From: a virus
Taxonomy: Duplodnaviria; Heunggongvirae; Uroviricota; Caudoviricetes
DNA length: 64,000 nucleotides
IMG/VR virus record: IMGVR_UViG_3300029656_000140
Direction: 5' to 3' (one strand)
In this document: positions 1-29,619 of the stretch, piece by piece
Layout of the letters: each line of letters opens with the position of its first letter
Numbering within the stretch: the stretch's first letter is position 1
Notes under the pieces: generated by a model
What the model saw: only the letters and a program-made list of their open reading frames with translations
Database searches by the model: none
Told to the model about the DNA's origin: nothing
Position numbers and translations under genes: made by a program

Positions 1-513
1 AGATGATAACCTCTTTCCTTTTTTATAGTGGTTTAAGTATAACACTGTGTTGGGGTGAAGGCAATATTACTTATTGTTCTCTTTCAGCATCCGTAACTTC
101 ATACCCCATCAAGTATTCCACCTAAAACCGCAAAATCATTCGTCGTTAGATAATCCTGAATTTTCAAACCGATATAGCTTTCCTTTATATACATATCACC
201 ACCTGCGTTCGGTTAGAGGAGATTCCTTTACTACGCATCTCCCCGGCGAAATACAAAATGTCGGTGTAAAATGTTCATTTACCACTACATATAGTGTTTA
301 CCTGTTTTTGAGCATAAAAAATAGGCCGCCAACCAAAAGATTGACGACCTAAAAAGCGGTGCAAAAAGCTCACTTATTTAATTGTTAGACTCTCGCCCAC
401 TTGGTTTCCGTTCCTGCCTGCTAATTTTCAGCAAGCTGGAAAGTGACCAAGTGGGCTTCTTTTTTGGAGATTTTTTCAGCAGCAGCTTCTCTCCCTGCTT
501 CGCCACACGCCCC

Positions 514-1008
514 TCACACTGCCCCACTGTCGGCTTTTTCTTCCGAGGTGGGATTGTTTTGCGCTGGGGAACTTTCTTCCCGACACAGGGCAAACGTGGG
601 GCTTCCCGTTTCGTCCAGCACTCTGCCGTTTTCGATTGGCAGCGCCTCCTGAATTTGAAAGCTGACCAGCTTCTGCTCCGGGAACGGATTCCCGATCATG
701 CGGTAAGACCTGCGCTTGCTCCAGTGGGCATTTTTGTAAACCATCCGGACGAAGGCCACGCACTTGATTTCACAGCTGCTGAACTCATTCAGCTTTCCCA
801 CTCGATGCGCACCGGCATCCCCTGCTTTGCATGCCTGCACTGCAATCTGATTCATTTGGGGATTGTATAAAAAACGATAGTGTGACGGCCAGCCGAGCGT
901 TTCAAGTGTGCTGCGGAAAATCGTGATCCGGCCTTCGTCAATACTGAATGTCATTCCCAGAACTCCGGCGTGCCATATTTTCTGTTCCTGTTCTTTCAAT
1001 CTGCTCAC
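514..1008 (-). CDS. small protein resembling the C-terminal domain of clostridial large serine recombinases (DUF4368-like), GTG start
   Basis: The motif ITIFRSTLETLG...IAVQ aligns by eye with the C-terminal domain of the recombinase at 1695-3566 (ISNGRLRFNTACL...VAIR) and with ORF 1055-1741. The start codon is GTG. Confidence 0.4.
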   Translation of the reverse strand: MSRLKEQEQKIWHAGVLGMTFSIDEGRITIFRSTLETLGWPSHYRFLYNPQMNQIAVQACKAGDAGAHRVGKLNEFSSCEIKCVAFVRMVYKNAHWSKRRSYRMIGNPFPEQKLVSFQIQEALPIENGRVLDETGSPTFALCREESSPAQNNPTSEEKADSGAV

Positions 1009-1054
1009 CTCCTAAAATTGGGCGCACTTCTCCCTTGGTGTCTTATTCCTGCTT

Positions 1055-1741
1055 TTAATCAGCTCCGGTACCGGGAGCCTTCCCCGTCAGGATGCCCATT
1101 GACACATATCCGTCCATCTGCTTGACCTCGGATTCTTTCAGATGCTCTTCCACTGGCACGCCAAAAGTACCTGCAATATCATCCGGGTAAAATCCCTTTC
1201 TGGTATCCGCAGGCTTTGTTTCCTGTGTTGTATTCTGGGCAGCACCTTTCTTACGCTTCTGAGGCTCATGGAAAATCTCAGGTACAAGCAAATCAAAAAC
1301 GTACAGAGTTTCCCCCTCGAAAGAAATCCTGTAGCCCAGCATCTTGTATCGGCACTCGCTGTCCCAGCCCATTTCTTTATAGACCAATTCCGAAAAAGGC
1401 TTACAGGACATCTTCCGGCTCTTACGCTTGTCCGGCTTTGCGATGCACCAGCGCAGAGCATCCTTGTCATTTTCATCACAGCCACGCACAACAATGCGCT
1501 TCAAATCGCTATTGAACATGACGTGGACATAAACCACATCTTCCAGCCCGGTGATGCAGGCTGTGTTGAATGTGATGCTGTCCTTGCGGATCACAATTGC
1601 AGGGTCACGAAGATGCGCGAACAGTTCTTTTCGGACGACCTGGTATCCGTCATACGAAAATGTACTCTCCAGTTCTTCAGCTTTTGCATCTCTATCAGTT
1701 TCCAATGCCTGCTGCGGCATCATCGCTCTGTTTTCTTCCAT
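1055..1741 (-). CDS. standalone DUF4368-like protein (recombinase C-terminal-domain homolog)
   Basis: 228 aa. The stretch SITFNTACITGLEDVVYVHVMFNSDLKRIVVRGCDENDKDALRW aligns with the C-terminus of the adjacent serine recombinase (LRFNTACLKKFEDVEYVELLLNSVDRCVAIRPCEKSNPNAIRW). It overlaps the recombinase 3' end. Confidence 0.5.
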   Translation of the reverse strand: MEENRAMMPQQALETDRDAKAEELESTFSYDGYQVVRKELFAHLRDPAIVIRKDSITFNTACITGLEDVVYVHVMFNSDLKRIVVRGCDENDKDALRWCIAKPDKRKSRKMSCKPFSELVYKEMGWDSECRYKMLGYRISFEGETLYVFDLLVPEIFHEPQKRKKGAAQNTTQETKPADTRKGFYPDDIAGTFGVPVEEHLKESEVKQMDGYVSMGILTGKAPGTGAD

Positions 1742-3566
1742 CTATGTCAATCCATCCTTCCATTATTTCTTCTGCCTCATGGAGCAAAGCATTCAGCCCC
1801 TCTGCGGTAAATATGTTCAATTCCTTAATTTCAGATGCCGGCCGGAGCACATCCCAATTCCCGGCATAATGCTCCTGCCGCAAAATGCCAACCTGTGCAA
1901 TGCTCGTGATTGGCTGTCCAAAAGTTCCTGCCCATTCAGGCGGGAAAATGTAAATCGTCTGTCTTATTGTTTTTCCCTCCGTATCTTCTTCCTTCGGCGG
2001 CAGAACGATTTTTTCAACTTTGATCATTTCCGGCTCATCCAGTTCAAAGAGCATCAGCTTATCGTCTCCCTGCTCCACAAGCTGTCCCCGGAAGCGGTAC
2101 TTCAAATTCTCATCCCACTCCATAATGTCAAAAAGGGCTTTTGCCAGACCGCGGCAGCCAAGTGTACTGGCACACCAGCGTCCTTGTTTCAGCCTGCCCC
2201 AGCGAATGGCATTCGGATTGCTCTTCTCACATGGACGAATGGCAACACAGCGGTCAACCGAATTCAGAAGCAGTTCTACATACTCCACATCCTCAAACTT
2301 TTTCAGGCAGGCAGTATTAAAGCGCAGCCTTCCATTTGAAATCGTCATCGCTGGATTCTGCAAGGTTGCAAAATACTGTGCCCGGACGACTTCATATCCT
2401 GTAAGATCCAGACGGTTCATTACCTCTGCCGTGTCGTGCCTCTCTTCCTGCATGACGCTTTCAGATGCTTCTCGATACTCTTCCGCAGAGAAACCTGTCC
2501 AGTCTTTATCAAAAGGCACATATCCACGGAGGATGCCATCGTCCACTACACTCAAAACCGGCAAAGGATGATTTTTCTTTTTATATGTCCGGGATGCACG
2601 CAGGTGATTGGCTGCGTTGAAAACATCTCTGGAGACAATTGCCTCGTGGTGATCTCGCTGGCGGTACTGCGTCCGGTCGTTATGGTTCTTCTTTGCCTTA
2701 TGGGTAAGGAAGTTTGGTGTGAAAGTCTTTCTCGCCAGTACATCTCCACAATGGCGTTCATTTGCAATGATGCCGGCAACAGTACCGGGATTCCACTCCG
2801 TGTTCCCCAGCTTCGTCTTCCGCTCGTAATCTGTCAGGAGTTCTGCAATATCTTTCAGTGAAAAACCGTTCAGGTACAGATAATAAATGACTTTTACCGT
2901 CTGTGCCTCTTCTGGATTCACCACAAGATTGCCATCTTCGTCCTGATCGTACCCCAACAAAGCAGGCGTGAGAAACAGTCCTCGGCTGAACCGGCGGTCA
3001 ATGGACCAGTTCATAATGATCGACTTGGAATGAGATTCTTCCTCTGCCACTGATGCCAGAATGGTCAAAATCATGCGGCCGTTGCTGTCCAGCGTATAGA
3101 TATTGTCTGCTTCAAATTTCACACCAACAGGTGGATCAAGATTTTTCAGTGTTTCAATGACAGAAAGGCAGTCCACAATGTTTCTGGCAAAACGGGCAAT
3201 GGACTTTGTAAGAATCAAATCAATCTTCCCGGCCTTGCAGTCTTCGATCAACTGCTGCATCCCCTTGCGATGCGCCAGTGAAGTGCCACTAATACCTTCA
3301 TCGTCATAGATGCCCACAAACTCCCATCCCGGCTGCGCCTTGATGTAATCGGTGTAATAATTTTTCTGAAGTTCGTAAGAAGAAGTCTGCTCATCATTAT
3401 CCGTGGAAACACGAACATAGGCAGCGACACGACGAATAGAGGTGCTCTCTCCAAGCCCCTCCACTGCTTTTGCCGGAATGACCTCCAGTTCGGAGGTATC
3501 CACGCCTTTATATCGATCTCTGATTCTTTGCTTGCGGTCTACCGCTTCTGTTCCACTGCTTATCAT
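1695..3566 (-). CDS. large serine recombinase (resolvase/invertase catalytic domain + recombinase domain + zinc ribbon + C-terminal DUF4368-like domain)
   Basis: Catalytic N-terminal domain RVAAYVRVSTDNDEQ...SIARFARN with the active-site serine. ATG at 3566 follows the RBS GAGAGGAAG. The longer ORF start at 3683 has no RBS. Confidence 0.9.
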   Translation of the reverse strand: MISSGTEAVDRKQRIRDRYKGVDTSELEVIPAKAVEGLGESTSIRRVAAYVRVSTDNDEQTSSYELQKNYYTDYIKAQPGWEFVGIYDDEGISGTSLAHRKGMQQLIEDCKAGKIDLILTKSIARFARNIVDCLSVIETLKNLDPPVGVKFEADNIYTLDSNGRMILTILASVAEEESHSKSIIMNWSIDRRFSRGLFLTPALLGYDQDEDGNLVVNPEEAQTVKVIYYLYLNGFSLKDIAELLTDYERKTKLGNTEWNPGTVAGIIANERHCGDVLARKTFTPNFLTHKAKKNHNDRTQYRQRDHHEAIVSRDVFNAANHLRASRTYKKKNHPLPVLSVVDDGILRGYVPFDKDWTGFSAEEYREASESVMQEERHDTAEVMNRLDLTGYEVVRAQYFATLQNPAMTISNGRLRFNTACLKKFEDVEYVELLLNSVDRCVAIRPCEKSNPNAIRWGRLKQGRWCASTLGCRGLAKALFDIMEWDENLKYRFRGQLVEQGDDKLMLFELDEPEMIKVEKIVLPPKEEDTEGKTIRQTIYIFPPEWAGTFGQPITSIAQVGILRQEHYAGNWDVLRPASEIKELNIFTAEGLNALLHEAEEIMEGWIDIDGRKQSDDAAAGIGN

Positions 3567-3576
3567 GTACTTCCTC

Positions 3577-4557
3577 TCATTCTTCCGGCTGTATGCTCCA
3601 GTACCACTGGCGCATCTTCCGATAACTTCGGATGCCGAGCTCCTTCTTTGTGTTTTCTGCTGTCCTGCGGCTGATGCCTTCATCGCTCATCCGCATATAA
3701 ATTTCTCTGGATCTCATATCTCCTTCAGAAAGCAGCTTTTTGATTAGATAGGCCGCTTTCTCAGACTTTGACTCAAAATTTGGTGTTTCCGGCTCCGCTA
3801 TTGGGTCCGGTGCAATCTCACACTCCAGCCAATGAAATCCTTCTTCTGCAGTTATCGAAAAACGGATTTCTCCATCGGATGGAGCCAGACTGTTTTTTAT
3901 CTGCCGGACAATGCGAACATCTGCGTTCTCTGGATCTCGTTCCACCTGCAGGACACTCCGGGCGGCCGCCACTACATCAATACTGCCAAGGCTCCGATAC
4001 AGACCTTTTGTTCCCTCTTTTTTGTTGAGGTGGCCGATCAGCACAATGGCGCAGTCATATACGGATGCCCACATGCCAAGACGCTGCATCAGCTTTCTGG
4101 CTCTGCCTGCAATCTGGAGGTCAGAATCGCTTCCAAGATACGCCTGTATCGGGTCGATGACTACCAGCCGAGGCCGGAATTCTATAATAGCCTGCCGGAT
4201 GCGTTCATCATCCAGTGTCAGGCCACTGTATGTTTCTTCATTTATAAAGGCCACATTCCTGCAATCTGCCCCACACTTTTCCAGCCGGGGCTTGATGGTA
4301 TCTGATACACCATCTTCTGAGCACTGGTAAATGACCCTCTGTGATAATCCAACGGCTTTGCCATCCGGCAGCTTTCCGCCTTTTGATAACTCTGCTATCA
4401 GATTCATCATCATTGTGGACTTACCGTCACCGGGGTCTCCTTGCAGTAATGTGATCTTCCCAACTGCAATGAACGGATACCACAACCAGCGAACGGCAGT
4501 CGCTTGTACATCACTATATAATGTAAGAATTCCTGTTTCTCCTTTGTTCGCCATCAT
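3577..4557 (-). CDS. RecA-like AAA ATPase (AAA_25/RepA-like) of integrative elements
   Basis: Walker A motif GDPGDGKST and Walker B LVVIDPIQ. It sits immediately upstream of the serine recombinase in the same operon. Confidence 0.75.
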   Translation of the reverse strand: MMANKGETGILTLYSDVQATAVRWLWYPFIAVGKITLLQGDPGDGKSTMMMNLIAELSKGGKLPDGKAVGLSQRVIYQCSEDGVSDTIKPRLEKCGADCRNVAFINEETYSGLTLDDERIRQAIIEFRPRLVVIDPIQAYLGSDSDLQIAGRARKLMQRLGMWASVYDCAIVLIGHLNKKEGTKGLYRSLGSIDVVAAARSVLQVERDPENADVRIVRQIKNSLAPSDGEIRFSITAEEGFHWLECEIAPDPIAEPETPNFESKSEKAAYLIKKLLSEGDMRSREIYMRMSDEGISRRTAENTKKELGIRSYRKMRQWYWSIQPEE

Positions 4558-4619
4558 CGTTCCTTTCTGTGTGCAGTCTTTCCCTCATTTACATTATAAG
4601 GGTTGCATGATGATTTGAC

Positions 4620-4670
4620 TGCCACCTGTTGGGTGGCACATCATCGTTTTTGCCACCTAATAGGTGGCAA
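4620..4670. promoter_or_regulatory. two palindromic operator sites, TGCCACC-N5-GGTGGCA, 32 bp centre to centre
   Basis: Copies are tgccacctgttgggtggca (4620-4638) and tgccacctaataggtggca (4652-4670). They lie in the divergent region between the XRE gene and the ATPase-recombinase operon. Confidence 0.6.
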
Positions 4671-4737
4671 AATAGCCTTAGACCACACTACGGATAGAGG
4701 TGTGGCCTTTTGCGGTCTTAAATTCCTCTGTATCCAG

Positions 4738-4767
4738 TTGCTATGTATTTTTTCCTGCGAGATAATC
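4738..4767 (+). promoter_or_regulatory. sigma-70-like promoter for the XRE gene (TTGCTA, 17 bp, GATAAT)
   Basis: ttgcta-tgtattttttcctgcga-gataat lies ~40 bp upstream of the RBS AAGGAGGA and the ATG at 4806. Confidence 0.45.
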
Positions 4768-4805
4768 GTATTGCCTTATGCGGGTAAACATAAGGAGGAC
4801 CACAC

Positions 4806-5147
4806 ATGGCATTAGATTATTCTGCACTAGGAAAACGCATCAGCAATTTCCGTAATGCATCTGGGTTAACACAGGAACAGTTCGGCGAAAAGCTGAATAT
4901 GTCCCGAAAACATATTAGTCAGGTTGAGGCTGCTATCAGCCGTCCCAGCCTTGAAACACTGGTTGATATCGCCAATCTGCTCGGTATTTCAACCGATGAT
5001 CTTCTTGTTGACAGTCTGACCCACTCAGCATCTACCGCTGATTCCGAGATTCACCGTCTGCTTTTAGACTGCAATGCAATTGAGCAGGAAATTCTCACCC
5101 GGATGGTAAAAGAGATGAAAGCGATTTTATACGGTTTGGGAATCTGA
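4806..5147 (+). CDS. XRE-family (Cro/CI-type) HTH transcriptional regulator
   Basis: The HTH reads LGKRISNFRNASGLTQEQFGEKLNMSRKHISQVE. The RBS is AAGGAGGA. Confidence 0.85.
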   Translation: MALDYSALGKRISNFRNASGLTQEQFGEKLNMSRKHISQVEAAISRPSLETLVDIANLLGISTDDLLVDSLTHSASTADSEIHRLLLDCNAIEQEILTRMVKEMKAILYGLGI

Positions 5148-5385
5148 TTTTGTAACTCGTTGACTACATAACATAAAAGCCCGCATAAGCCACAGCTGCA
5201 CTTCGGATCACACCGGGGTGCTGTCTGTGGTTCATGCGGGACGAGGCAAAAAAAGCCCACCAGCGTACCATGTAAGATTCCACACAGTGCGCCGGTGGGC
5301 TGGTGAACGAGTTTTCAATCTTCGTTCCGATCTCTCGGACAGGTTTTATGTCTCTGCCCCGACATAAAGTTTATTTTCACTTATG

Positions 5386-6048
5386 CTACTTAGTATTGTC
5401 TACACCGTTGTTATCCTCTGCTTCTAGTCGCGGTAAAGTTCCCCAATCATCCGGGTATTTGAGTTTATCATAATCTATCTTTTTGGCTCGATAGATAATT
5501 TGACTAAACACACTCTCCTCTGCATCTTTTATATATGTAGCAATAATTCTGTAGGAATCCTTTATATTGTCCCGGATATCTCCCTCAAGTAATGTATCCG
5601 GAACATAGTCTCCAGTTCCCGTAACATCACGGAAGCCAAGTGCCCATTTTACACCGCCGACAAGTTTTTCGGTGTATAACAACGGATGTGAATTATTATA
5701 ATTTCCCATCATACTTGCAGACAGGTTAGCATTTTTAAAGGCAAAAGGCAAAACTGCCAGCTTTTGATGTGTCGTTCCTTTCCCCGCAAAGTCAATATCG
5801 GTTTCTTTCAATCGACCATCAATACAGAAATTATAAAAATCAAGATGCGACCATGTACTATTTGTAAGTTCCAGTCCTGTAAGATGATGAAAGTTACTAG
5901 CATCAAATCCAACCTCAAGCGATGAAACCTTCTTATGTTTATCGGTAACTACAAAGAGTAATCGCTTTCCAACAAAATTATTTTTGTACAGCCTCGCTGC
6001 TGATATTGCTATCGAAACTGCCTCTTTCTTTGTGTACTTCTTTCCCAT
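5386..6048 (-). CDS. hypothetical cargo protein in a low-GC island; candidate defence/abortive-infection or toxin-like protein
   Basis: 220-aa ORF in a ~38% GC segment set in ~55% GC DNA. No motif I can assign, although FHHLTGLE is conserved-looking. It converges on the XRE gene. Confidence 0.55.
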   Translation of the reverse strand: MGKKYTKKEAVSIAISAARLYKNNFVGKRLLFVVTDKHKKVSSLEVGFDASNFHHLTGLELTNSTWSHLDFYNFCIDGRLKETDIDFAGKGTTHQKLAVLPFAFKNANLSASMMGNYNNSHPLLYTEKLVGGVKWALGFRDVTGTGDYVPDTLLEGDIRDNIKDSYRIIATYIKDAEESVFSQIIYRAKKIDYDKLKYPDDWGTLPRLEAEDNNGVDNTK

Positions 6049-6126
6049 TCTGTATATTCCAATTCATTTATGTAAAAATTTAAAGGGAGACTACAACACC
6101 GCAGTGCTGTGCGTCTCCCTTTATGA

Positions 6127-6235
6127 CTGATTTTATCGTTGTCCGCCAACACTCCAGCCCATACGTCTGGATTCGCTATCAGGTTTTATCGTTGCCTGCC
6201 AACCCTCCGGCCTATGCATCCGGATTCACTATCGG
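6127..6235. repeat. two-copy imperfect tandem direct repeat (~53 bp, ~80% identity)
   Basis: ttttatcgttgtccgccaacactccagcccatacgtctggattcgctatcag is followed by ttttatcgttgcctgccaaccctccggcctatgcatccggattcactatcgg. Confidence 0.6.
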
Positions 6236-6346
6236 ATTTAAGGTGTCAGCCACACCAGCAGGATGTCGCCTGCTTTCCTACTCATAGTATACTCGATAAA
6301 CAGCTTTTTATCAACTGGTTTTGAAAATTTTCTTTTGAATTTTCTA

Positions 6347-6748
6347 TTAACTTCTGTCCCACCGCAAACTCCTATACGCATCCAGCACGAACTCCAAAAA
6401 ATGGGGACTCATCTGCTCCACCATGCTCTTACCATCCACATTCCCCAGCATGGTCACACCAGCTTTTGACAGGTCATCGTCTCTCTTCTCCAGTTCCTTG
6501 ATGCTATCCGCCACGGCCGCATCGATGAAGGCAGCGAGCTTTGCTCCGTCAACATTGCTTTGCACTGGCATCGGTGCGCCATCTTCACCGACAAGCTGAA
6601 TCACCTTCGGATCAAGAACCTTCTCCAGTTTCTCCAATGCCTCCTGCTCCGGCATCCGCCGCAGATACCCTTTCATCGCACTCACGACCATCAGTTCCAT
6701 CTGGGTCGTTGCATAATCCTCAACTGACAGCCACGCTAATTTCTTCAT
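6347..6748 (-). CDS. small hypothetical protein, last gene of the recombinase pair operon
   Basis: ATG at 6748 (MKKLAWLSVEDY) follows the RBS AGGAGAGAG. It lies directly downstream of recombinase B. Confidence 0.55.
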   Translation of the reverse strand: MKKLAWLSVEDYATTQMELMVVSAMKGYLRRMPEQEALEKLEKVLDPKVIQLVGEDGAPMPVQSNVDGAKLAAFIDAAVADSIKELEKRDDDLSKAGVTMLGNVDGKSMVEQMSPHFLEFVLDAYRSLRWDRS

Positions 6749-6897
6749 ATCGCTCTCTCCTGCTATGTGTATTTCTGTACTCTCACCATATAACAGAATT
6801 CTGCACATAGCAATGGGTTCGACAAAACAATTCCCCATAAAACAAAAAAAATCCCCACCAGACAAGACCAAATGTCTCATCCAGTGGGGAATCCGCG

Positions 6898-9102
6898 TCA
6901 TGCTTCCTGCTCCTGTACTTCTCTCTCCAGTGCTTTTCGTTTCCGGATCATCAGCGTGTTCGCTGTCTTTTCCTTTCTCTTTTCCCGGTGGTACCGGATG
7001 CAGAGTCCATTGACCTGCCAGCCATCCATCAGCACCTCGACCGTCTTGTTTGGGTTACACCTGCGGAATCCGATAAATGCCATCAGCGTCCGGCTGTTGC
7101 CTGTGCTCGTCAGCTTCACACCAAAGTTCGTCATGTAGGTGATCACATCTCCGTCAACGATGCCTTCCTTGATAAATGCAAAGTAGATACCTTTTTCAAA
7201 TTCCAGAAAATCCGGAGCCTGTTCTACACGGTCGGCTCCCATCTTCCTCTTTCCTCTTCGGATGTCGCTCATGATTTTGCTTCGTGCCTTCCCGCCAAGG
7301 TCACGCAGGCAGCTTCCATCCGTGTCCAGACCGTTGACGTTCAGCTTCATGCCGGCCTTGTTGACTTCGGGCAGGGCTTCCAGACAGCGGATGAAGAACT
7401 CATAGTTGTTTTTCATTTCCGAAAGAAGCTGTTCTTCCTGGCTGAGCTGCTGCCGTTCCTCCTGCTGCTCATCCAACCGAATCCGCAGATCATCTACCAG
7501 TCTTTCGTAGGTTTCGACCTCTGGGCTGGTTTTCTGTCGGCCACGCTCCACTGCTTCCTTCAGCTTGCCCTGCATCTGTGCCAGCTTTCCCTCCAGCTGC
7601 TGAATCTGTTCCTCCAGTTCTGCTTTCCTGGAAGAATCCCGTTCTGCAATGTGCTCCTGCACCTTCTGGTAGGCCATCCGGAATTCCGAATCGATCCATG
7701 CGTTTTCTCCATTTTCCTCACGGTCACGCTTGATGGCATACAGCATTTCCATGAAACTCTGCTTGACTGCCGTTTCGTACACAAAATGGGAAGGGCACTT
7801 TGCGTCTCCCTCGCCCATGTAGGTCGGATGCCAGGCAACATCTGGGTCTGCCTTTCCCATGAAAGGGCCATCGTTGGTCGGAGACGCATCTTTCTGACTG
7901 GAACACCGCCAGACCGGGTAGGTGTAATAATATCGCTCATAATAATCATCCGGCGAACTGCCCTGCGCCATTAATTCATCTCGGCAGGCATCCAGACTTC
8001 TGTCATCCTCAAAGTGCGTGGCTCTTGCCTGCAGGGTTCTGCGGTAAAGGGGTTCTCCGCATTTTCCGCATACCAGATTGTCAAAAACATCCTTGCCCAC
8101 CCGCTTGGCAGGCTTTTTGTCCTTCTGCCCTTTACGGCTGGCGCTCCTTCTTTCCAGAACTTCCTGTGCCCTCGTCCATGTCGTTCTGCTGATGATCGGG
8201 ACGTGATGGTCTGTTACATAGAACTTCGGGGCTTCTCCGTTGTTCGGGATTGATTTATGGCTGAGAAAATCGACCGTGACTGTTTTCTGCATTTCGCAGT
8301 CGCCCACATACTTCTCATTTCTCAGGATGAAGGTCACACTCTCTCCCTGCCATTTTGTACCTTTGGGTGAAAGGATGCCTTTCTCATTCAGTTCCTTGCT
8401 GATTTTGTATGCAGACTTTCCCAGAAGGAACTCCTCAAAAATGAACCGCACCACCCTGGCCTGTTCTTCTACGATGACCCAGTCCTTATTGTTTGCACCA
8501 TCCGTGTAGCCGTAGACCGACCTGGGATTTCCAAAAGCGATGCCTTCCTGAAACATCTTTTGGATGCTCCAGCCGATATTCTTGGAAATCGAATTGCTTT
8601 CTTCCTGTGCCAAAGCCGAAAGGATGGTCAGGAGCAATTCGCCAGATGCATCCAGCGTATCGATGTTCTCCTTTTCGAAGTACACACCGATTGGCGGGTC
8701 ACACTGCCGAAGCTGTCTCACGCAGTTCAGCGTATCGACCGTATTTCGTGCAAATCGGGAAATGGACTTTGTAATGATGTAATCGATCTTTCCGTCCAGC
8801 GCATCCTGCATCATCTGATTAAACTCGGTGCGGTGGTTACGGTTGGTGCCGGAGATTGCTTCATCTGCATACATTCCGGCAAAAGTCCAGCCTTCTTTTT
8901 CATTGATCAGCTTCGTGTAATAGCTTTTCTGCCCCTCATACGAAGTCTGCTGGGTAAGCTCATCGGTCGAAACACGGCCGTAAGCGGCAACCCGAATGTC
9001 CTTTGCCTTTTTCAGCTGACCGCCGGCCGACACTCTCCGCTTCGTTGCCGGAATCACCTGCACATTGTTTGCAACCGTCCCTTGTGTCATTTGTCTGTTC
9101 AT
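6898..9102 (-). CDS. large serine recombinase B
   Basis: Catalytic motif RVAAYGRVSTDELTQ...KSISRFARN, zinc ribbon CGKCGEPLY, and a coiled coil. ATG at 9102 follows the RBS AAGGAGGA. The TTG at 9105 listed in the ORF track is less likely. Its start overlaps the upstream recombinase stop in TGATG. Confidence 0.9.
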   Translation of the reverse strand: MNRQMTQGTVANNVQVIPATKRRVSAGGQLKKAKDIRVAAYGRVSTDELTQQTSYEGQKSYYTKLINEKEGWTFAGMYADEAISGTNRNHRTEFNQMMQDALDGKIDYIITKSISRFARNTVDTLNCVRQLRQCDPPIGVYFEKENIDTLDASGELLLTILSALAQEESNSISKNIGWSIQKMFQEGIAFGNPRSVYGYTDGANNKDWVIVEEQARVVRFIFEEFLLGKSAYKISKELNEKGILSPKGTKWQGESVTFILRNEKYVGDCEMQKTVTVDFLSHKSIPNNGEAPKFYVTDHHVPIISRTTWTRAQEVLERRSASRKGQKDKKPAKRVGKDVFDNLVCGKCGEPLYRRTLQARATHFEDDRSLDACRDELMAQGSSPDDYYERYYYTYPVWRCSSQKDASPTNDGPFMGKADPDVAWHPTYMGEGDAKCPSHFVYETAVKQSFMEMLYAIKRDREENGENAWIDSEFRMAYQKVQEHIAERDSSRKAELEEQIQQLEGKLAQMQGKLKEAVERGRQKTSPEVETYERLVDDLRIRLDEQQEERQQLSQEEQLLSEMKNNYEFFIRCLEALPEVNKAGMKLNVNGLDTDGSCLRDLGGKARSKIMSDIRRGKRKMGADRVEQAPDFLEFEKGIYFAFIKEGIVDGDVITYMTNFGVKLTSTGNSRTLMAFIGFRRCNPNKTVEVLMDGWQVNGLCIRYHREKRKEKTANTLMIRKRKALEREVQEQEA

Positions 9103-11204
9103 CAATACTTCCTCCTTATCATGCCGGGCTGCTGATAGCCCTCAAATACGCTGTCACACTCCACATCCGTGCAGGTGTCATCAAACCAGTGGATTCTAAA
9201 ATGTTTCGGTGAAAAAATGGTAACGGAAAGCACAAAGGCTTTCACATACGTTCCAACTGCTTCATCCAGAAACATCTGCGTCCCTCCCGCCAGAGAATCC
9301 AGCCATTGCAGCGTTTTCTCCCGGATTTCATAGGTCTGCTCCAGCTTCTTCCAGTAATCTTCCATGTACCGGACCTGTTCGGCCTGCTGCTGGGCTTCGT
9401 GTTCCAGCTTCTCCAGCTGTTCCTCTTCGTTGAGAAGTCTGTCTTCTAATTCTGTGACCGCTTCTTTTTCTATCGGTTCTCCCAGCACCTCACTTCTCAC
9501 TTTTAAGGCTTCTTTTTCTGCCTGAATATCCCGGATGTGCTGGTGGGCATCCCGAATGCTATAGTTCACTGCAGACAGCTGGCGTTTCAGAAAATCCCCT
9601 TCCTGCTCCATCTGGTCGAAATCATGGATCTCTCTCAGCTTCTCACTCAGATTCCTTAATGCCTGATTTCTCACATTATCAATAGGAGCTTTGGAGATCA
9701 TCTGCATAACCTCATGAACTTCTGCATCCATCTTCTCAACCAGCTTGAATTTTTCGGCAAATGCCTTGCGAAGCAGCGCCTGGATCTGCTCTTCATAAAC
9801 CGGCTCCATCCGGCAGCGCTTCTGTCCCTGTTGGGCGAGCTTCGTTGCACACCGCCAGATGGTTGTCCTTGTTGTGGAATGGCCTTGAAAATACCGTCCG
9901 CATTCTCCACACAGCAGGAGTTTGGAATAGTTCCTTTCGTTTCTTCCTTTTTCAATACCCCTGTACTTTGCCGTGTATACCTTCCAGACTTCCTGTGCTT
10001 CCTGCCACAATTCTTCCGAAATGATAGCCGGATGATGATTTCGTATCAGGTATTTCGGCTTTTCCCCCTTATTGACCTTCTGTTTACGCCCATTCCTGTG
10101 ATCGGTGTAGGTCTTCTGACAAAGTACAGAACCGCAGTAACGAACGTTTGCGATCATGTACCGAACATCCGTTGCCGTCCACCCCCGCTTATCTTCTTCC
10201 TTTAGTGTGCCAGCTGGCAGCACAGTTGGCTTCCGCTTTTGCCGCTGTCTGCATCCGCTGTTCGGCGGCTGGATATGCATGGCATCCAGCTTCTGGGCGA
10301 TTTGTGTGAAGCCTAATTCTTCTTTTGTAAAAAGTCGGAACACCATCCGAACAATCTCTGCTTCTTCCGGGATGATGAACACTGCCCGGTATCGGTATCC
10401 GTTCTCGTTCACTGTATACTCCCCTTTGCGGAATTCGTATCCGTAGATATCCTTGTTGCAGACATTTCCGGCCGGAAACCTTTTCTGATTGCTCCATGCA
10501 ATGTTTGCTGAAATCGAACGGCTCTCTTCCTGGGCAATGGCGGCCAGCGTAGTAAGAATGAACTCGCTGTAAGCATCCGCTGTATCCATCGCTTCCCGCT
10601 CAAACAGAATCGTGACATTGTTTTCCTTTAAGGTCCGTAATGCCACAAGAAAGTCCTGCGTGTTTCGGGCAAAACGGCTGATGGACTTACAGAGCACTCG
10701 GTCAATCTTCCCCTGCTTGCAGTGCCGGAGCAAACGGTTGAATCCTGTCCGTCCTTCCCTGCTTGTTGCGGAAATGCCATGATCGGAATAAATGCCGGCA
10801 GATGTCCATCCCGCATTTCCTGCCAGGAGTGACATAAAGTAGCGTTCCTGCATTTCATACGAATCTTCCTGTGCCGGATTGGTGGAGGAAACACGGATAT
10901 ATGCGGCGACCCGAACAGCCTTCTCTTGGCTTGCTGCTGGCACCGTCGGCATTGCCGGCCGGCATTCCTGCATCACATCGGATGCGAGCTGGGAGAAGTC
11001 TTCCATACTCTCCGGCTCATTCACCGGCATTTCTTTTACTGGTGCATAGCTGGTTACGGGCGGCTTCTTTTTCTCAGCCCTGACTTTTTGCATGGCGGCA
11101 AGGATCTGCGCCACCGATTCACTCTGTTCTGCCTTTTTCTTACCTTTTGCTTCCGGCAGCTTCATCTTTGACATAAGATCATTCAGAAAAGCATTTGAAT
11201 CCAT
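9102..11204 (-). CDS. large serine recombinase C
   Basis: Catalytic motif VRVAAYIRVSSTNPAQ...KSISRFARN. ATG at 11204 (MDSNAFL) follows the RBS AAGGAGAGG. It is translationally coupled to recombinase B. Confidence 0.9.
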   Translation of the reverse strand: MDSNAFLNDLMSKMKLPEAKGKKKAEQSESVAQILAAMQKVRAEKKKPPVTSYAPVKEMPVNEPESMEDFSQLASDVMQECRPAMPTVPAASQEKAVRVAAYIRVSSTNPAQEDSYEMQERYFMSLLAGNAGWTSAGIYSDHGISATSREGRTGFNRLLRHCKQGKIDRVLCKSISRFARNTQDFLVALRTLKENNVTILFEREAMDTADAYSEFILTTLAAIAQEESRSISANIAWSNQKRFPAGNVCNKDIYGYEFRKGEYTVNENGYRYRAVFIIPEEAEIVRMVFRLFTKEELGFTQIAQKLDAMHIQPPNSGCRQRQKRKPTVLPAGTLKEEDKRGWTATDVRYMIANVRYCGSVLCQKTYTDHRNGRKQKVNKGEKPKYLIRNHHPAIISEELWQEAQEVWKVYTAKYRGIEKGRNERNYSKLLLCGECGRYFQGHSTTRTTIWRCATKLAQQGQKRCRMEPVYEEQIQALLRKAFAEKFKLVEKMDAEVHEVMQMISKAPIDNVRNQALRNLSEKLREIHDFDQMEQEGDFLKRQLSAVNYSIRDAHQHIRDIQAEKEALKVRSEVLGEPIEKEAVTELEDRLLNEEEQLEKLEHEAQQQAEQVRYMEDYWKKLEQTYEIREKTLQWLDSLAGGTQMFLDEAVGTYVKAFVLSVTIFSPKHFRIHWFDDTCTDVECDSVFEGYQQPGMIRRKY

Positions 11205-11424: not shown

Positions 11425-12897
11425 TCAGATACGTGCTGCGAAGTCAAGTGCGATCCAGCCTGCACCGGATTTCAGCTTGCCCCAGCCTTTCACAGAACCA
11501 GCACCAGCAGATTCTGTCACGATGGTGAACACGCCCCTTCCGGTGTAATAACCGGTCTTGCCGTAGTTTGTGCCTGGTCCTTTACGGATGTTGAGGTCAT
11601 TGATGGACACTCGAACCGCATACGGCACAGATGCAGTCTGGTTCACAGGATAGACCGCCTTGCCGGCCGGATCAAAAACCGTATACCCCGGATTCGCATC
11701 CGCACACTGCTTCGCATAGGACAGATCATGGAACGCCCCTTTCTGGGAAGCTGCATTCTGCCAGCTCTTACGCACACGATACCAGCCAGAGATGTTACCT
11801 CCCTGGTTCTGGGCTGAGGCATTATACTGTGTCATGTTCCAGCGTTCGATGATATTGCAGAGATTCTGCACATAGGTGTGGCTGGTGGCATAGCCGCCAT
11901 CCTTGATGATCTGCACAGCCTTCTTGTAATCCGTGCATCCTGCCAGACCTTCATAACGTTTCCTGCTGCCATTCATCGCACCGAGCAGATATGCCGCATG
12001 GTCGGCAATGGAGTCCTCCACACAGGCGTACTTTCGGAAATCAGCGGTGATCGTGACATAGCTGCCATCGGCATTCTGCTCCTGCGTTTTCTTGGTATAG
12101 ACCGACTTGCCATCCCAACTGCTGCCGCTCCAGCTGTTCCCGGAAAGCGAGGTCTTCATGCCAAAGCAGTTATTAGCATTCTGTGCCAATTCACTCTTAC
12201 CGTAGCCGGACTCCAGAATAAACTGCGCCATCGACACGCAGGCAAGGATGCCGAACTGCTTCTGGTTTTCGGTAAACAATGGACCGATCTCTGCCACTGC
12301 CTCGGCTTCAGACAGGTTCTTAAGGGAAGATGCCTGCAGGCCGGATGAAGATGAACCGCCAAGTGCCGCCGTCACCCTTGCTGCCAGATCACCCAGACGG
12401 GCGTACAGCCAGTTTCCGGGACAGCTTTTGTTGGCAAACCAGCGATGAACAGTCAGGATCATCTCGTCTGCTGCCGGAGCGTAGTTGAGGGTTTTATTCT
12501 TGTCGCCCAGCCACAGCAGTTTCTTCTTGCCGTTACGTTTGCAGATATCGATGCAGAGCTTAACGAGCGAGTTATATACGGCGCTGTTCATCGCATACGG
12601 CTCATTCATGTCGCTGGCACATTCGATGGTGACTGCTCTCTGGTCATTGGAATTGCTGGACGAGCACCAGCTGCGGTTCTTCTCCTCCACACACAGAGAA
12701 ACCCGGCCGTCCGTGCCAATGCCATAGTTGCAGCTGGCCTGACGGGTCGGGCTGGTAAAACATCCGCAAATGCTCTCCGCAGAAAGCTGACCTACCACGC
12801 AATGCGGCGTGATGCGGTCAATGCTGTGTGTTCTCTGCCCGGAATGGTTCGGGGAGAGTTTGGTATAAACAACGAGTGGACTATTGGTGTATCCCAT
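11425..12897 (-). CDS. endolysin: N-acetylmuramoyl-L-alanine amidase (Amidase_2) + glucosaminidase + ~48-aa wall-binding module + SH3
   Basis: Amidase_2 motifs HSIDRITPHCVVG...AVTIECASD, glucosaminidase FILESGYGKSELAQNANNCFGMK, and a C-terminal SH3. ATG at 12897 follows the RBS AGGAGGA. The ORF-track N-terminal extension has no RBS. Confidence 0.85.
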   Translation of the reverse strand: MGYTNSPLVVYTKLSPNHSGQRTHSIDRITPHCVVGQLSAESICGCFTSPTRQASCNYGIGTDGRVSLCVEEKNRSWCSSSNSNDQRAVTIECASDMNEPYAMNSAVYNSLVKLCIDICKRNGKKKLLWLGDKNKTLNYAPAADEMILTVHRWFANKSCPGNWLYARLGDLAARVTAALGGSSSSGLQASSLKNLSEAEAVAEIGPLFTENQKQFGILACVSMAQFILESGYGKSELAQNANNCFGMKTSLSGNSWSGSSWDGKSVYTKKTQEQNADGSYVTITADFRKYACVEDSIADHAAYLLGAMNGSRKRYEGLAGCTDYKKAVQIIKDGGYATSHTYVQNLCNIIERWNMTQYNASAQNQGGNISGWYRVRKSWQNAASQKGAFHDLSYAKQCADANPGYTVFDPAGKAVYPVNQTASVPYAVRVSINDLNIRKGPGTNYGKTGYYTGRGVFTIVTESAGAGSVKGWGKLKSGAGWIALDFAARI

Positions 12898-12962
12898 ATC
12901 GATTCCTCCTAAAAAATTGAGACCCGGATCACTCCGAGTCTCATGTGTTTGTGTTATTGTGT

Positions 12963-13670
12963 TTAAGGGATCAGCAGCTTCATGCCGACCCGGATGGCAT
13001 TGGAGGTCAGGCCGTTCAGTGCACGGATATCGGCACAACGGCTGCCATCCCCCAGTTCCTTCTCTGCAATCTTCCAGAGGTTGTCGCCCGGAACAACGGT
13101 GTAGATCTTGCTGGCGGTAAAGGCATAGGTATCCGCACTGTTGAGAACATAGGCCAGACCGCTCGCCGCTTCCGGGCATTTAATCTTCAGCCAGCCGGCG
13201 CAGAACTCCACGATCTCGATCAGCGTATTCTTCTTATAGATAGCCACAACCTCTGCACTGGTATCCGGCATTTCCCGGATATTCATAAGGGTCTTGAGTT
13301 TGCCATAGGCGATCGCTGCCGGGAGTTCCTCTGCAGTCGGATACTCTTCCTTTCCGGGTCCCTCTTTCTGCTCATCCGTCACAGGGGTGTCCTTCTCTTC
13401 CAAAGATTCCTCTTCCGGTACTTTCCCTTCCGGCTCGTCCATAACAGGCTTTTCCTCCGCTTCTTCTGCACCTGTGACCGGCACAGCCTCCTCCGGGTAG
13501 ATCACATTGCCGTCATTATCAAATACACGGCTGCCGGGATTCTCATCGCACTTGGCTTTTGCATTCGCCAGCAGACGGTATGCGCCAAACTGGGATGCTT
13601 CATCCTCCCAGTCCTCACGCACACGGTAGTAGCCGGTCGTCAGCTTTGCGGGATATTCTTTCATACTCAT
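12963..13670 (-). CDS. cell-wall-binding protein without catalytic domain (shared ~48-aa module + SH3 + LysM)
   Basis: The N-terminal YYRVREDWEDEASQFGAYRLLANAKAKCDENPGSRVFDNDGNVIYP is homologous to GWYRVRKSWQNAASQKGAFHDLSYAKQCADANPGYTVFDPAGKAVYP in the endolysin. The C-terminal LysM reads YTVVPGDNLWKIA...GMKLLIP. Confidence 0.7.
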   Translation of the reverse strand: MSMKEYPAKLTTGYYRVREDWEDEASQFGAYRLLANAKAKCDENPGSRVFDNDGNVIYPEEAVPVTGAEEAEEKPVMDEPEGKVPEEESLEEKDTPVTDEQKEGPGKEEYPTAEELPAAIAYGKLKTLMNIREMPDTSAEVVAIYKKNTLIEIVEFCAGWLKIKCPEAASGLAYVLNSADTYAFTASKIYTVVPGDNLWKIAEKELGDGSRCADIRALNGLTSNAIRVGMKLLIP

Positions 13671-13724: not shown

Positions 13725-14147
13725 TTACTGCTTGTCGATTTTGTCCTGATCGCGCTCGTCTTTCAGCTGTGCCAGCATCTCCTTGAGCTTCTCCGGCACC
13801 GGAAGACCGATCACTGCTGCATTTTCGAGACAGCTCAGGCCCTCGTTTGCCAGATAGAAGAACACTACAGCGGTGCGGATGGCGGCTCCATTCTGGAGGA
13901 TCTGTGTGTCAATGATATTGGCAATACCAACCAGCACAAAGATACATACCTTCTTGGCGATACCCTTAAAGCCAACTTCAGAAGAAAGCTCATGCTTGAT
14001 TGCTGCCGCCAGCACCCCGGTGAAGTAGTCACAGACCACGAACACTACAAGTGCATACAGGAAGCCGTCAAACCCGCCGAAGAACCAGCCCAGGAAACCA
14101 CCCAGGCCTGCGAACATCCATTCAATCTTGTCGATCACATTCTGCAT
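13725..14147 (-). CDS. phage holin
   Basis: 140 aa with several transmembrane stretches (FAGLGGFLGWFFGG, LYALVVFVVC, IFVLVGIANII) and a charged C-terminus. It heads the lysis cassette. ATG at 14147. Confidence 0.7.
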   Translation of the reverse strand: MQNVIDKIEWMFAGLGGFLGWFFGGFDGFLYALVVFVVCDYFTGVLAAAIKHELSSEVGFKGIAKKVCIFVLVGIANIIDTQILQNGAAIRTAVVFFYLANEGLSCLENAAVIGLPVPEKLKEMLAQLKDERDQDKIDKQ

Positions 14148-14250
14148 AATTCCGTCCTTTCCGCCCGTATCCGGGCAATAAAAATAGACAGCCGAAGCTG
14201 CCCTTTGATATGGATTATATATAAAAACACGGACAAGCCGTGGGATTTGA

Positions 14251-16614
14251 TTATCGATAGCTGGCAATCACTGCACTGGCATTGAACACTCCGATCTTCT
14301 TTGCGCCTGCCGCATTCGGATGCAGACCATCAATCAGGTAGCGGCCATTGGCATTCTTTTTCTCGTAGATGTCACAGATACCACAGCAGAAAGTATCAAT
14401 GACTTCCAGAGACATCCTGCCGGCAAGAAGTTTCAGATAATCGCCTTTCGCCTTGGACTGTGCATAGCTCCGGGTCGTGATATAGCCCTGAATCGGCGTA
14501 CAGATATAAATCTTCGCCGCCGGGTACAGCTGCTGAAGTTTTTCGATGCTGTACCGGAATGCTGATGCAAACGCCCTGCGGTCCAGCTCTTCGATGGCGA
14601 CCATTTCATTCTCTGAAGTGAAAGAGCCTTCCATATCGCCGGAAGGAACACCATCATTCGTACCACAGGCGATCAGGATCATATCAAAGTCGGCGTAGGC
14701 AGTCACTTCCTTGTAGTGAGGGCTGGTCTTGTCCTTGCCTCGGATGAGTTTTTCCACCTGATTGCCCATGACATTGTTGTGGTTCTGATCCGGTCCGGAA
14801 AAGACCGGGTTGCCATCGTAAACGCTGTCCTCATAATCGCACCATCTGGCACTGGATACCGACAGGTTTACAAACCGCTCCGGCTGGATGATCTCATTGA
14901 AGTATCTTACCCAGCCACGCTCCGATGTGTTCAGTGCCGTGATGCTGTCTCCCAAAAACAGGATCTTCTTTCCGGTGAACGCAGATTTCTGCTTCATGAC
15001 CACCTGCATATCCGTAGACACGGAACTGATCGTTTTGGAAAGGTTCTGCATATTCGCATCTGCTGTTTTGATCGCATCCGCATTTACACTGACCTTTTCC
15101 GACAAGGCAGCAAGCTCCTTTGTATTGGTGTCAGCCTGCTCATGAAGGAGGCTGTAATCTTCCCCAAAGTAGCTGCCCTTCACATTGAAGTAATGTGCCT
15201 TCACGTTGGACATGGTCATATCGTAGGTGCTGTTCTTCGTGAACACGATCTGGATATAGTCATCCTTATACCCGGCATCTTCCAGCTTTTTGGATGGGAT
15301 TTCAAGCGTGATCCTCTTTGGTTTTCCATCTGTAGAAGCAATCGACCCAAGGTTTACCAGCTTTGAACCAACCACATAGTAGTGCATCAGCTGGTCGTTG
15401 CAGTAATCCATCTCGACATAAAGCTTATCAAACCGCTCCGCACGGGGAACTTTGATGCCGCCGCCATGATACCCGCTCTCATATTCTGTCAAAAAATGAT
15501 GGATGGTGGCTCCTTCATCCACGATCTCCCATTTTCCTTTGGAAAAGACACAGGGCTGGAATGGAACTTCAAGGCTCTGTGACATCAGCGCATCCCGTGC
15601 AAGTTTTGCCGCGCTTACACAGGCATCTGCGAGTTTATCCTTTGTAACGGTAGCATCCAGGAGTTTCTGTCCGTCCACCGATTTATCCCGAAGCATCGTG
15701 CCGGACAGCGTATGGTCGCCAAACGGCATCCTGCCATCCACCTTGAACGGAAAGTAGCCATAAGACCGTTCCGGATATTTACAGTCCACTACAAAAACAA
15801 TGATATCATTCTCTTTTGGAGAATCCGACCAGTCCGCTGTCACCAACGTCCCTTCCACTGTATCGTAGGAGATATAGGTCAAAAGAGCATCCGGGTTATA
15901 TGGAACCGGCTCTGGTTTCGTAAGCAGCTTATTCCCCTTCGCACCCAGATAGATAAAGTTCCCAGAAAACTCCAGCTGATGCTCTGTGGTATTCAGATTG
16001 ACTGCTCCTGTATAAGAGAAAGGCATACCGTTGGCATAGAACTTATCGGCTCTGGACCGTAAGTGTGCACCAAATGAGTCATAGGTCTTCCCTGCCGAAT
16101 CGACCCGCGCATCCAGAGTCTCCTTGTCCGTAGTCTTACCGGATGCAATGCTGTTCATCCTGGAATTCAGGGATGCTGCACTCTGCTGCATGGCCGTCCG
16201 TCCATCCTCCAGCTGCTTCTGAGCATCTGCCACCTTCTTCGCCAGCGTAGTGGTCGTATCACTCAGGCTGTCATTCACGTTCTGCACCGTATCCGTGAGT
16301 TTTTGGGTGACCCTTTCTTCCGTTTCGGACACATTTTTACTGATGCGGCTTTCTGTTTCTGTCAGTTCCGTATGGACGTCCTCTGCTGTCCGGGTCAGAT
16401 GATCCTCTGCCAGCCTGATCTGCTCACTGAACTGACTGCATACAGACCAGTAGTGTTCATTAAAGATTTCCGTTCCAGCCGGGACCGGCAGCTTGGAGAT
16501 ATAGCTGACACCAGTTTCTTGACACAGCACGATGATCAGTTCCTCGTACTCTTTTGTCTTGTCCCAGATGCCGCCATGCTTCGGGACGATGCGTCTGCCA
16601 ACATACTTAGGCAT
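14251..16614 (-). CDS. tail fibre / receptor-binding protein with C-terminal SGNH (GDSL) hydrolase domain
   Basis: The N-terminal ~100 aa are homologous to the upstream fibre (PKYVGRRIVPKHGGIWD). The C-terminal domain carries KILFLGDSIT, GTND and DGLHPN. The RBS is GAGGGGAGGTG. Confidence 0.75.
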   Translation of the reverse strand: MPKYVGRRIVPKHGGIWDKTKEYEELIIVLCQETGVSYISKLPVPAGTEIFNEHYWSVCSQFSEQIRLAEDHLTRTAEDVHTELTETESRISKNVSETEERVTQKLTDTVQNVNDSLSDTTTTLAKKVADAQKQLEDGRTAMQQSAASLNSRMNSIASGKTTDKETLDARVDSAGKTYDSFGAHLRSRADKFYANGMPFSYTGAVNLNTTEHQLEFSGNFIYLGAKGNKLLTKPEPVPYNPDALLTYISYDTVEGTLVTADWSDSPKENDIIVFVVDCKYPERSYGYFPFKVDGRMPFGDHTLSGTMLRDKSVDGQKLLDATVTKDKLADACVSAAKLARDALMSQSLEVPFQPCVFSKGKWEIVDEGATIHHFLTEYESGYHGGGIKVPRAERFDKLYVEMDYCNDQLMHYYVVGSKLVNLGSIASTDGKPKRITLEIPSKKLEDAGYKDDYIQIVFTKNSTYDMTMSNVKAHYFNVKGSYFGEDYSLLHEQADTNTKELAALSEKVSVNADAIKTADANMQNLSKTISSVSTDMQVVMKQKSAFTGKKILFLGDSITALNTSERGWVRYFNEIIQPERFVNLSVSSARWCDYEDSVYDGNPVFSGPDQNHNNVMGNQVEKLIRGKDKTSPHYKEVTAYADFDMILIACGTNDGVPSGDMEGSFTSENEMVAIEELDRRAFASAFRYSIEKLQQLYPAAKIYICTPIQGYITTRSYAQSKAKGDYLKLLAGRMSLEVIDTFCCGICDIYEKKNANGRYLIDGLHPNAAGAKKIGVFNASAVIASYR

Positions 16615-29476: not shown

Positions 29477-29619
29477 TTGCGTAACCACCTCCTTGCAGGC
29501 ATGAAAAAAGCCCATCTGCACGAAGCAGACAGGCTAAAGGAAAAAATGCTATTAGCTGTGTATCAAAGTCATCCTTTCAGCATACAATATATTTATCAGT
29601 AAATTTATCGACTAACCGG

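Follow-up and report, generated by a model that had tools for sequence, protein, structure and literature searches.

The DNA considered here, called the window throughout, is a stretch of 64,000 nucleotides from the IMG/VR virus record IMGVR_UViG_3300029656_000140 (Caudoviricetes). It is a temperate siphovirus-like prophage, and the minus strand holds nearly all of its gene calls. At one end it carries three serine recombinase genes, a gene for an ATPase of the AAA_25 family and two small open reading frames, ORF1 and ORF2 (Table 1). The recombinases are labelled RecA-type (1695-3566), RecB (6898-9102) and RecC (9102-11204), and the product of a 133-aa gene is called p133. A domain of about 130 residues, named DOM, is common to the C-terminus of RecA-type, ORF2 and ORF1; ORF2 and ORF1 are also referred to as DOM-long and DOM-short. 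The operon consisting of AAA_25, RecA-type, DOM-long and DOM-short is syntenic in about 120 loci of Clostridia genomes and gut phages.

Serine recombinases and the DOM domain

The three large serine recombinase genes predicted by the initial annotation are all present, all on the minus strand, and each product contains the catalytic domain PF00239 (E 1e-28 to 6e-28) and the Recombinase domain PF07508 (E 7e-21 to 1e-24). Large serine recombinases are defined by a zinc ribbon with an embedded coiled coil, which reads attP versus attB and enforces the direction of the reaction. Among the three proteins, RecC alone matches the zinc-ribbon model PF13408. The translated RecB sequence shows a CxxC...C...C motif and a segment rich in heptads, and the phrog_95 integrase profile (651 positions) is matched up to position 524 by RecB and up to 555 by RecC; from the motif and the profile coverage, a zinc ribbon and a coiled coil are probable in RecB as well. 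RecA-type matches this profile only up to position 363. PF00239 and PF07508 are its entire Pfam content, and its sequence matches in the PDB end at residue 318. PF13408 is absent from RecA-type and from the best 120 of its 7115 relatives, all of which carry PF00239 and PF07508. The alignment of the RecA-type family (17 sequences, 42-93% identity), in which an RVS(T)D motif is invariant, contains no cysteine cluster. RecC has the zinc-ribbon and coiled-coil region that defines large serine recombinases; RecA-type, as judged from its sequence, has neither element and carries the uncatalogued DOM in their place.

DOM is an uncatalogued domain family: it has no family match in NCBIfam, in the PHROGs or, even at E <= 10, in Pfam, and sequence-profile search found no relative in the PDB. 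The designation DUF4368-like, given in the initial annotation, had to be abandoned, as neither the C-termini of the three recombinases nor ORF1 and ORF2 have a Pfam match to such a domain at E <= 10. In the AlphaFold (AF2) model of ORF2, built from a 28-sequence alignment, the core (residues ~45-160) has a predicted local distance difference test score (pLDDT) above 90, and DOM consists of two successive β-hairpin/α-helix/β-hairpin (ββαββ) units. The transcription factor MraZ is a tandem AbrB-like swapped hairpin with a two-unit topology. It is the top structural match, a weak one, and DOM is possibly an AbrB/MraZ-like barrel. Foldseek searches gave only weak, unnamed matches in BFVD and none of use in the PDB (TM-score ~0.1, sliding clamps).

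The two small reading frames had been expected to align with the C-termini of all three recombinases. The pairwise and hidden Markov model alignments proposed for checking this are significant for RecA-type. In BLASTP, ORF2 matches residues 381-591 of RecA-type with 27% identity over 215 aa (E 4e-28), ORF1 matches the RecA-type tail (E 4e-6), and the two small proteins match each other (E 5e-9). When family profiles of 21 diverse orthologues each were compared by hhalign, the RecA-type C-terminal domain family was matched by the ORF2 family at 100% (E 4e-39) and by the ORF1 family at 97.9% (E 4e-13), with 97.8% (E 8e-13) for ORF1 against ORF2. The expectation does not hold for RecB and RecC, on which DOM can be ruled out: the BLASTP E-value of ORF2 against both is above 6, and the hhalign probabilities of the DOM profile against their C-terminal thirds are 0.3% and 0.1%. 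By these alignments, ORF1 and ORF2 are paralogues of the C-terminal domain of RecA-type and of no other recombinase of the window. Beyond DOM, a YP..W..(T/S)FG.P motif is common to ORF2 orthologues and RecA-type proteins.

ORF2 has 3614 relatives among clusters of 90% identity and 1289 among representatives at 50% identity. Homologues of 230 aa (P0001, P0047 and P0097) are called 'integrase' by NCBI; they contain no catalytic domain, and they probably acquired the name because they resemble the tail of the recombinase encoded next to them.

ORF1, ORF2 and p133 are real genes, since their ratios of nonsynonymous to synonymous substitution (dN/dS) of 0.10-0.27, 0.05-0.08 and 0.13-0.36, respectively, show purifying selection. 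That ORF1 and ORF2 are pseudogenes or untranslated was ruled out by these ratios, by ribosome-binding site evidence and by synteny. ORF2 overlaps the RecA-type gene by 47 nt, and 4-nt gene overlaps are found in relatives, where ORF2 and ORF1 overlap as well; co-translation is therefore indicated. The AAA_25 gene ends 11 nt before the start of RecA-type, which bears out the proposal that the third recombinase lies in its own operon with a RecA-like AAA ATPase. PHROG matches of AAA_25 are to transposition-protein, primase/helicase and DnaB-like families.

Table 1. Positions of the genes and other features of the window
Feature	Position	Strand	Remarks
Prophage/host junction (att core, ATGTAT/ATGTACAT-like)	187-193	.	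homology of close relatives stops at 186-206
Non-coding terminal arm between ORF1 and junction	194-513	-	conserved blocks in alignment of 10 arms
Terminator-like hairpin with T-run, after ORF1	351-322	-	terminator scan
20-nt conserved motif ATAAGTGAGCTTTTTGCACC	358-377	-	candidate protein-binding site; single copy in window
Hairpin in terminal arm	456-395	-	
ORF1 / DOM-short, 161 aa	514-999	-	TTG start at 999, 7 nt after AGGAGG
ORF2 / DOM-long, 228 aa	1055-1741	-	N-terminal helix, DOM, basic linker, conserved RKGFYPDD..TFGVPVEEH
RecA-type serine recombinase, 623 aa	1695-3566	-	catalytic and recombinase domains, C-terminal DOM
DOM within RecA-type	residues ~385-520, window ~2007-2414	-	
AAA_25 ATPase (RecA/DnaB-like P-loop)	3577-4557	-	first gene of operon; PF13481 E 2e-22
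XRE-type helix-turn-helix regulator	4806-5147	+	divergent from operon; HTH_3 E 4e-15
PBECR4 nuclease-like gene	5386-6048	-	variable cargo slot; PF18813 E 8e-23
p133, small conserved protein	6347-6748	-	follows RecC/RecB pair
Strong intrinsic-terminator-like hairpin	6852-6890	-	17-bp stem and T8; directly 3' of RecB
RecB, canonical-type large serine recombinase, 734 aa	6898-9102	-	PF00239, PF07508
RecC, canonical large serine recombinase with zinc ribbon, 700 aa	9102-11204	-	PF00239, PF07508, PF13408 (E 1.6e-7)
LysM protein and endolysin	11425-13179	-	followed by RecC on the minus strand
Holin	13725-14267	-	
Tape-measure gene	23567-29521	-	among head and tail genes
TerL	37868-39493	-	
Early and replication genes	64-44 kb	-	D5-like primase-helicase, SNF2 helicase, MazF, MetK
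MetK	53690-54757		full S-adenosylmethionine synthetase
D5/NrS-1-type primase-helicase	55027-57480		
MazF/PemK-like toxin	57453-58016		

Synteny and divergence of the two gene groups

The analysis drew on 75 loci of genomes that each represent a species (Lachnospiraceae, Oscillospiraceae, Ruminococcus, Anaerovoracaceae and others) and on 47 loci of IMG/VR, and gene order was counted in the genomic and metagenomic set. The ORF2 homologue is immediately preceded by a DOM-bearing recombinase in 60 of 67 loci and immediately followed by an ORF1 homologue in 68 of 75. In 50/60 loci this recombinase has AAA_25 upstream, and a divergent XRE gene lies upstream in 35/44. Further serine recombinases are found within 10 kb upstream in 28 of 44 loci, usually as a pair followed by a p133 homologue and often directly after an endolysin gene; the remaining 16 have none.

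In the window the stop codon of RecC and the start codon of RecB overlap in TGATG, as the initial annotation had noted, and the endolysin gene lies directly upstream of RecC, an arrangement repeated in many relatives. The 133-aa gene described as following the pair is present and kept beside such pairs, in most loci that have one, and p133 has no family match in Pfam or PHROG. It is separated from RecB by the hairpin at 6890-6852, however, and because this strong terminator-like structure follows RecB, p133 is probably not simply co-transcribed with RecC and RecB. The likeness to ccrA/ccrB that had been suggested extends to architecture but not to identity. Like CcrA and CcrB of SCCmec, RecC and RecB are two adjacent, co-oriented and co-translated large serine recombinases on a mobile element, but they are not orthologues of these proteins, because their scores against the NCBIfam Ccr models (at best 131.7 bits for a CcrB cut-off of 900, and at most 72 bits for a CcrA cut-off of 700) are far below the cut-offs.

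In some elements the DOM module is the only recombinase module. In Blautia intestinalis (L040) no other recombinase lies within ±10 kb of it and ParM-like and PIN genes adjoin it; it stands at an element end, and 460 bp separate this end from a UDP-glucose dehydrogenase/polysaccharide locus of the host. Since it is also found without another recombinase, the RecA-type module is a self-contained unit.

Homologues of the recombinase module occur in 17 records with phage names (NatCom_/IMGVR). Two such GenBank records that were opened are complete genomes classified as 'Ca. Heliusvirales', with the same gene set at 36-43% identity and with the recombinase pair convergent to the DOM operon. The paper on this order does not discuss the recombinases. 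TerL of the window is 76% identical to that of one NatCom Heliusvirales genome and equally to those of Streptococcus Javan prophages. The pair and the RecA-type module co-occur from 100% down to ~40% identity, and their co-occurrence, also in another relative orientation in complete phage genomes, argues for a functional linkage.

The genes of the two groups were also compared at those loci whose RecA-type protein is at least 80% identical to that of the window. AAA_25, RecA-type and ORF2 are 81-100% identical to their window counterparts. The identities of RecC (41-100%), RecB (43-96%), p133 (43-97%) and ORF1 (51-94%) fall in concert, and the terminal arm beyond ORF1 can be aligned only where ORF1 is at least 87% identical. 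The corresponding dN/dS values are ~0.04-0.08 for AAA_25, RecA-type and ORF2, and 0.1-0.36 for ORF1, RecB, RecC and p133. The region is a gene-by-gene mosaic: in comparison with locus L083, dS is 0.02 for RecC and 1.3 for ORF2. In distant comparisons dS is near saturation everywhere, and the contrast is mostly an approximately tenfold difference in dN. At the protein level the conclusion is robust that AAA_25, RecA-type and ORF2 are a core under very strong constraint and that ORF1, RecB, RecC and p133 evolve several times faster, as expected of parts that read diverging DNA sites. The idea that ORF1 and the arm constitute a swappable specificity cassette was kept as a hint, as linkage and the differences in protein rate suffice to account for the pattern.

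In the assemblies labelled Blautia faecis (L013) and Faecalibacterium intestinale (L014), a terminal stretch of 1053 bp downstream of ORF2 matches the viral contig L096 at 99.8-99.9% identity. This means either that the element passes between bacterial families or that one assembly is contaminated.

The element end and its att-like sites

The flank at positions 1-186 differs in every relative, and DNA of the element lies above position ~190. In elements that are 93-99% identical over the module, similarity to the window stops at 186-206 and is followed by a different flank in each case. At least 8 different flanks, or insertion sites, are represented among these close relatives, including ribosomal protein L31/ABC transporter genes, a helicase, glycosyltransferase genes and the upstream region of a phage holin. 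Most of ten aligned arms have the sequence ...GTGA(G/T)ATGTA(C/T)AT before the point of divergence. The junction of the window is therefore placed at ~187-193, inside a palindromic core resembling ATGTACAT. The operon always abuts the element end, within 0.3-0.5 kb of the junction between element and host. The junction is also the centre of a 9-nt inverted repeat (164-172 / 209-217), which was taken as chance because the flanks of relatives do not have it.

A second group of elements, with a RecA-type protein 91% identical to that of the window and an arm that cannot be aligned, ends at CAGAAAT| and has at least 6 different flanks, among which several lie within a ugd-like gene. Diverged elements in L015, L097, L101 and L104-L108 lie at one position inside a UDP-glucose-dehydrogenase-like gene, and in L040 (11584-12834) the element ends just upstream of an intact ugd in a polysaccharide locus. 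The ugd region is a recurrent target neighbourhood.

In the related viral contig L099 (6527-6638) the place of the flank is taken by an intact attP-like palindrome of ~112 bp, against 40-50 bp quoted for canonical serine integrase att sites. It has inverted arms of 26 nt, 88% complementary and 60 nt apart, and its centre is exactly the junction deduced independently from other relatives. At 31-56 nt from the centre, in the outer arms, lies the motif AAGTGAGCTTT...CGCC, which is kept in otherwise unalignable arms. The motif is found in 35 of 81 arms, with 0.016 expected per arm, and is kept in all elements with a closely related RecA-type protein.

Neither a direct nor an inverted copy of the terminal 30-40 nt was found above the level of shuffled sequences anywhere in the window, nor was a second copy of the arm motif found there. 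Since there is no second terminal copy and phage early genes are still present at 64 kb, the left end of the prophage lies outside the window. At four loci (L004:13548-13715, L017:13800-20696, L043:5128-7734 and L096:13565-20690) phage genes come after the end of the element, either the holin upstream region or an early-to-tail run with large deletions, which points to prophages in tandem or rearranged, to insertion of the element into another prophage, or to chimeric assembly.

The XRE gene is the sole clear plus-strand gene at the RecA-type end of the prophage. The cargo slot (5147-6347) lies between it and p133, and the PBECR4 gene in this slot is not part of the recombination machinery. 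Close relatives have another PBECR4 variant, a MerR-family gene and a 105-aa gene here, and one has an IS110 insertion in the slot. A promoter scan gave nothing above shuffled sequences. In the lysis region (11425-13670), the listed endolysin reading frame of 584 aa overlaps the upstream 235-aa LysM-repeat frame by ~217 nt, and the true start of the endolysin is probably an internal ATG.

Proposed function of the DOM operon and relation to known systems

The preferred explanation, taken as a whole, is given a probability of about 0.5. In it the region 187-11204 would be the integration/excision end of a temperate Clostridia phage of more than 64 kb and would hold two recombination modules. Module 1 would consist of the translationally coupled canonical large serine recombinases RecC and RecB with their partner p133, and module 2 of the repressor-flanked operon of AAA_25, RecA-type, ORF2 and ORF1. 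The DOM operon would be a self-contained serine integration/excision machine for the adjacent junction, with ORF1 and ORF2 as trans-acting subunits for direction and/or site choice. The RecA-type enzyme would act at this junction, and DOM would be the distal DNA-binding or assembly domain that takes the place of zinc ribbon and coiled coil. The slowly evolving ORF2 and the fast evolving ORF1 may co-assemble with RecA-type on an unusually long att site and confer directionality and/or specificity, ORF1 being the likeliest specificity subunit. The directionality, target-selection and dominant-negative roles put forward in the initial annotation are thus putative ones. The ATPase might help in assembly, in capturing the target, or in replicating the element once excised. 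Control by the divergent XRE repressor would cause the operon to be expressed first on induction.

Several points weigh against this explanation. The roles of ORF1, ORF2 and the ATPase in recombination are all inferred from sequence, and the AF2 model of full-length RecA-type is unusable (mean pLDDT 44). The window-type arm motif lies ~170 nt from the junction, as opposed to 31-56 nt in L099. Physical linkage within a mosaic region can account for the way ORF1 type and arm type vary together. Finally, attL/attR and the attP of the phage itself could not be reconstructed, so RecC and RecB could equally act at the junction.

A wider formulation is considered rather unlikely. The module would represent a new class of multi-subunit serine integrases in which the recombinase would have lost the zinc-ribbon/coiled-coil module, and recognition of att and target sites, and directionality, would be delegated to free-standing paralogues of its DNA-binding domain, with ORF2 as a conserved 'adaptor', ORF1 as a fast-evolving 'specificity' subunit and the P-loop ATPase assisting. 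If true, this would be a serine-recombinase counterpart of the Tn7/Mu-type machines, and exchange of a 15-kDa subunit could in principle direct it to other targets.

The initial annotation had proposed either a nested integrative element or a multi-recombinase system. The evidence favours the latter over accidental nesting, because the pair and the module co-occur over the whole range of identity, 'Ca. Heliusvirales' included, although the RecA-type module also occurs alone. A nested or piggy-backing origin is considered unlikely. It would make the block of XRE, AAA_25, RecA-type, ORF2 and ORF1 (~190-5300) an autonomous element or satellite, with its own integrase and a Rep-like ATPase, inserted at the end of a phage whose real integrase is RecC/RecB. 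The 16 of 44 loci with a lone module (such as L040), the resemblance of the ATPase to replicative and primase-associated ATPases, and a history of AAA_25, RecA-type and ORF2 that differs from that of their neighbours are what such an origin would predict. Homology blocks shared with many relatives also begin sharply at 5300-5304, but this boundary is that of the variable cargo slot. Neither the terminal sequence nor the arm motif recurs in the window in either orientation, and the outermost parts, ORF1 and the arm, track RecB, RecC and p133 instead of the central block. Complete phages, moreover, carry the pair and the module together in the other relative orientation.

More doubtful still is the assignment of the junction to RecC and RecB as a heteromeric integrase, which would leave the DOM operon, with its accessory DOM proteins, to excision only, to multimer resolution, or to an inversion/deletion switch. 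Small serine recombinases (resolvases and invertases) depend on synaptosomes formed at accessory sites, and RecA-type, devoid of zinc ribbon and coiled coil, resembles them. RecC and RecB are complete canonical integrases and are translationally coupled. The joint divergence of RecB, RecC, p133, ORF1 and the arm between groups in which RecA-type stays at least 90% identical fits this assignment too, but it is largely a matter of rate differences at nearly saturated dS. The junction adjoins the RecA-type operon in every arrangement seen. Elements with the RecA-type module alone still end right after DOM-short, beside host genes; therefore, this module can be the sole integrase.

A role of ORF2 and ORF1 as AbrB/MraZ-type regulators of transcription, controlling lysis-lysogeny or the late programme and sharing their fold with the recombinase tail by descent only, is improbable: MraZ, the weak top structural match, is a transcription factor and the genes lie beside the divergent XRE switch region, but the strict operonic coupling (ORF2 overlapping the recombinase gene, and ORF2 and ORF1 overlapping in relatives), the near-universal synteny with a DOM-bearing recombinase, and the YP..W..TFG.P motif in both ORF2 and the recombinase, more easily explained by a common partner or site, argue against it.

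The phage large serine integrases (phiC31, Bxb1, A118, TP901-1 and SPbeta SprA) have the same catalytic and recombinase domains as all three recombinases of the window, and a zinc ribbon and coiled coil as in RecC and probably RecB; the position at the prophage end and the adjacent small genes are also alike. Unlike these integrases, RecA-type has neither zinc ribbon nor coiled coil but an unrelated domain; where they consist of one enzyme, the window has three recombinases together with an ATPase, and the attP-like site found in a relative is ~112 bp long. Recombination directionality factors are not known to be paralogues of an integrase domain. Nor are they known to have a common sequence signature, and ORF1 and ORF2 are consistent with them by position beside the integrase gene only.

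Triplets of serine integrases, sometimes separated by other coding sequences, have been described at the extremity of streptococcal integrative and conjugative elements (ICEs), and some of these integrases have no zinc-ribbon Pfam domain (Ambroset et al. 2016, PMC4701971). The description of these triplets includes no ATPase, no DOM and no free-standing paralogues. The multi-targeting TnpX/TndX-like serine recombinases, which are characterised by DUF4368 (Durrant et al. 2022, PMC10083194), likewise have close copies in many insertion sites with a short or degenerate core, but the proteins described here have no DUF4368 and a different C-terminal architecture. The DOM operon would follow the gene logic of the Tn7, Mu and IS21-type machines, with a single operon for the recombinase, its P-loop ATPase and small accessory proteins that bind DNA, and with the use of several target sites. 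The transposases of those machines are of the DDE type and their ATPases are AAA+ proteins of other families, and the likeness is one of analogy only. Paired recombinases, serine integrase triplets and multi-targeting are known; the DOM family was previously uncatalogued. Literature searches found no description of a serine recombinase with a DOM-type C-terminus, of free-standing paralogues of an integrase domain, or of an ATPase-coupled operon.

Large serine integrases are prized for genome engineering because two short sites are read by a single protein. Re-targeting them is difficult, since the zinc-ribbon/coiled-coil region has the specificity built in. The DOM module is abundant in human-gut Clostridia phages and other elements, and in it the substitute for this region is also supplied in trans, twice. 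The arrangement suggests that copies of one of its own domains, in detachable form, determine where the integrase acts or in which direction. If the small paralogues do set site choice or direction, this would be a modular form of control of a serine integrase, and it could help to explain the multi-recombinase clusters on ICEs and phages, which have long been noted and never explained.

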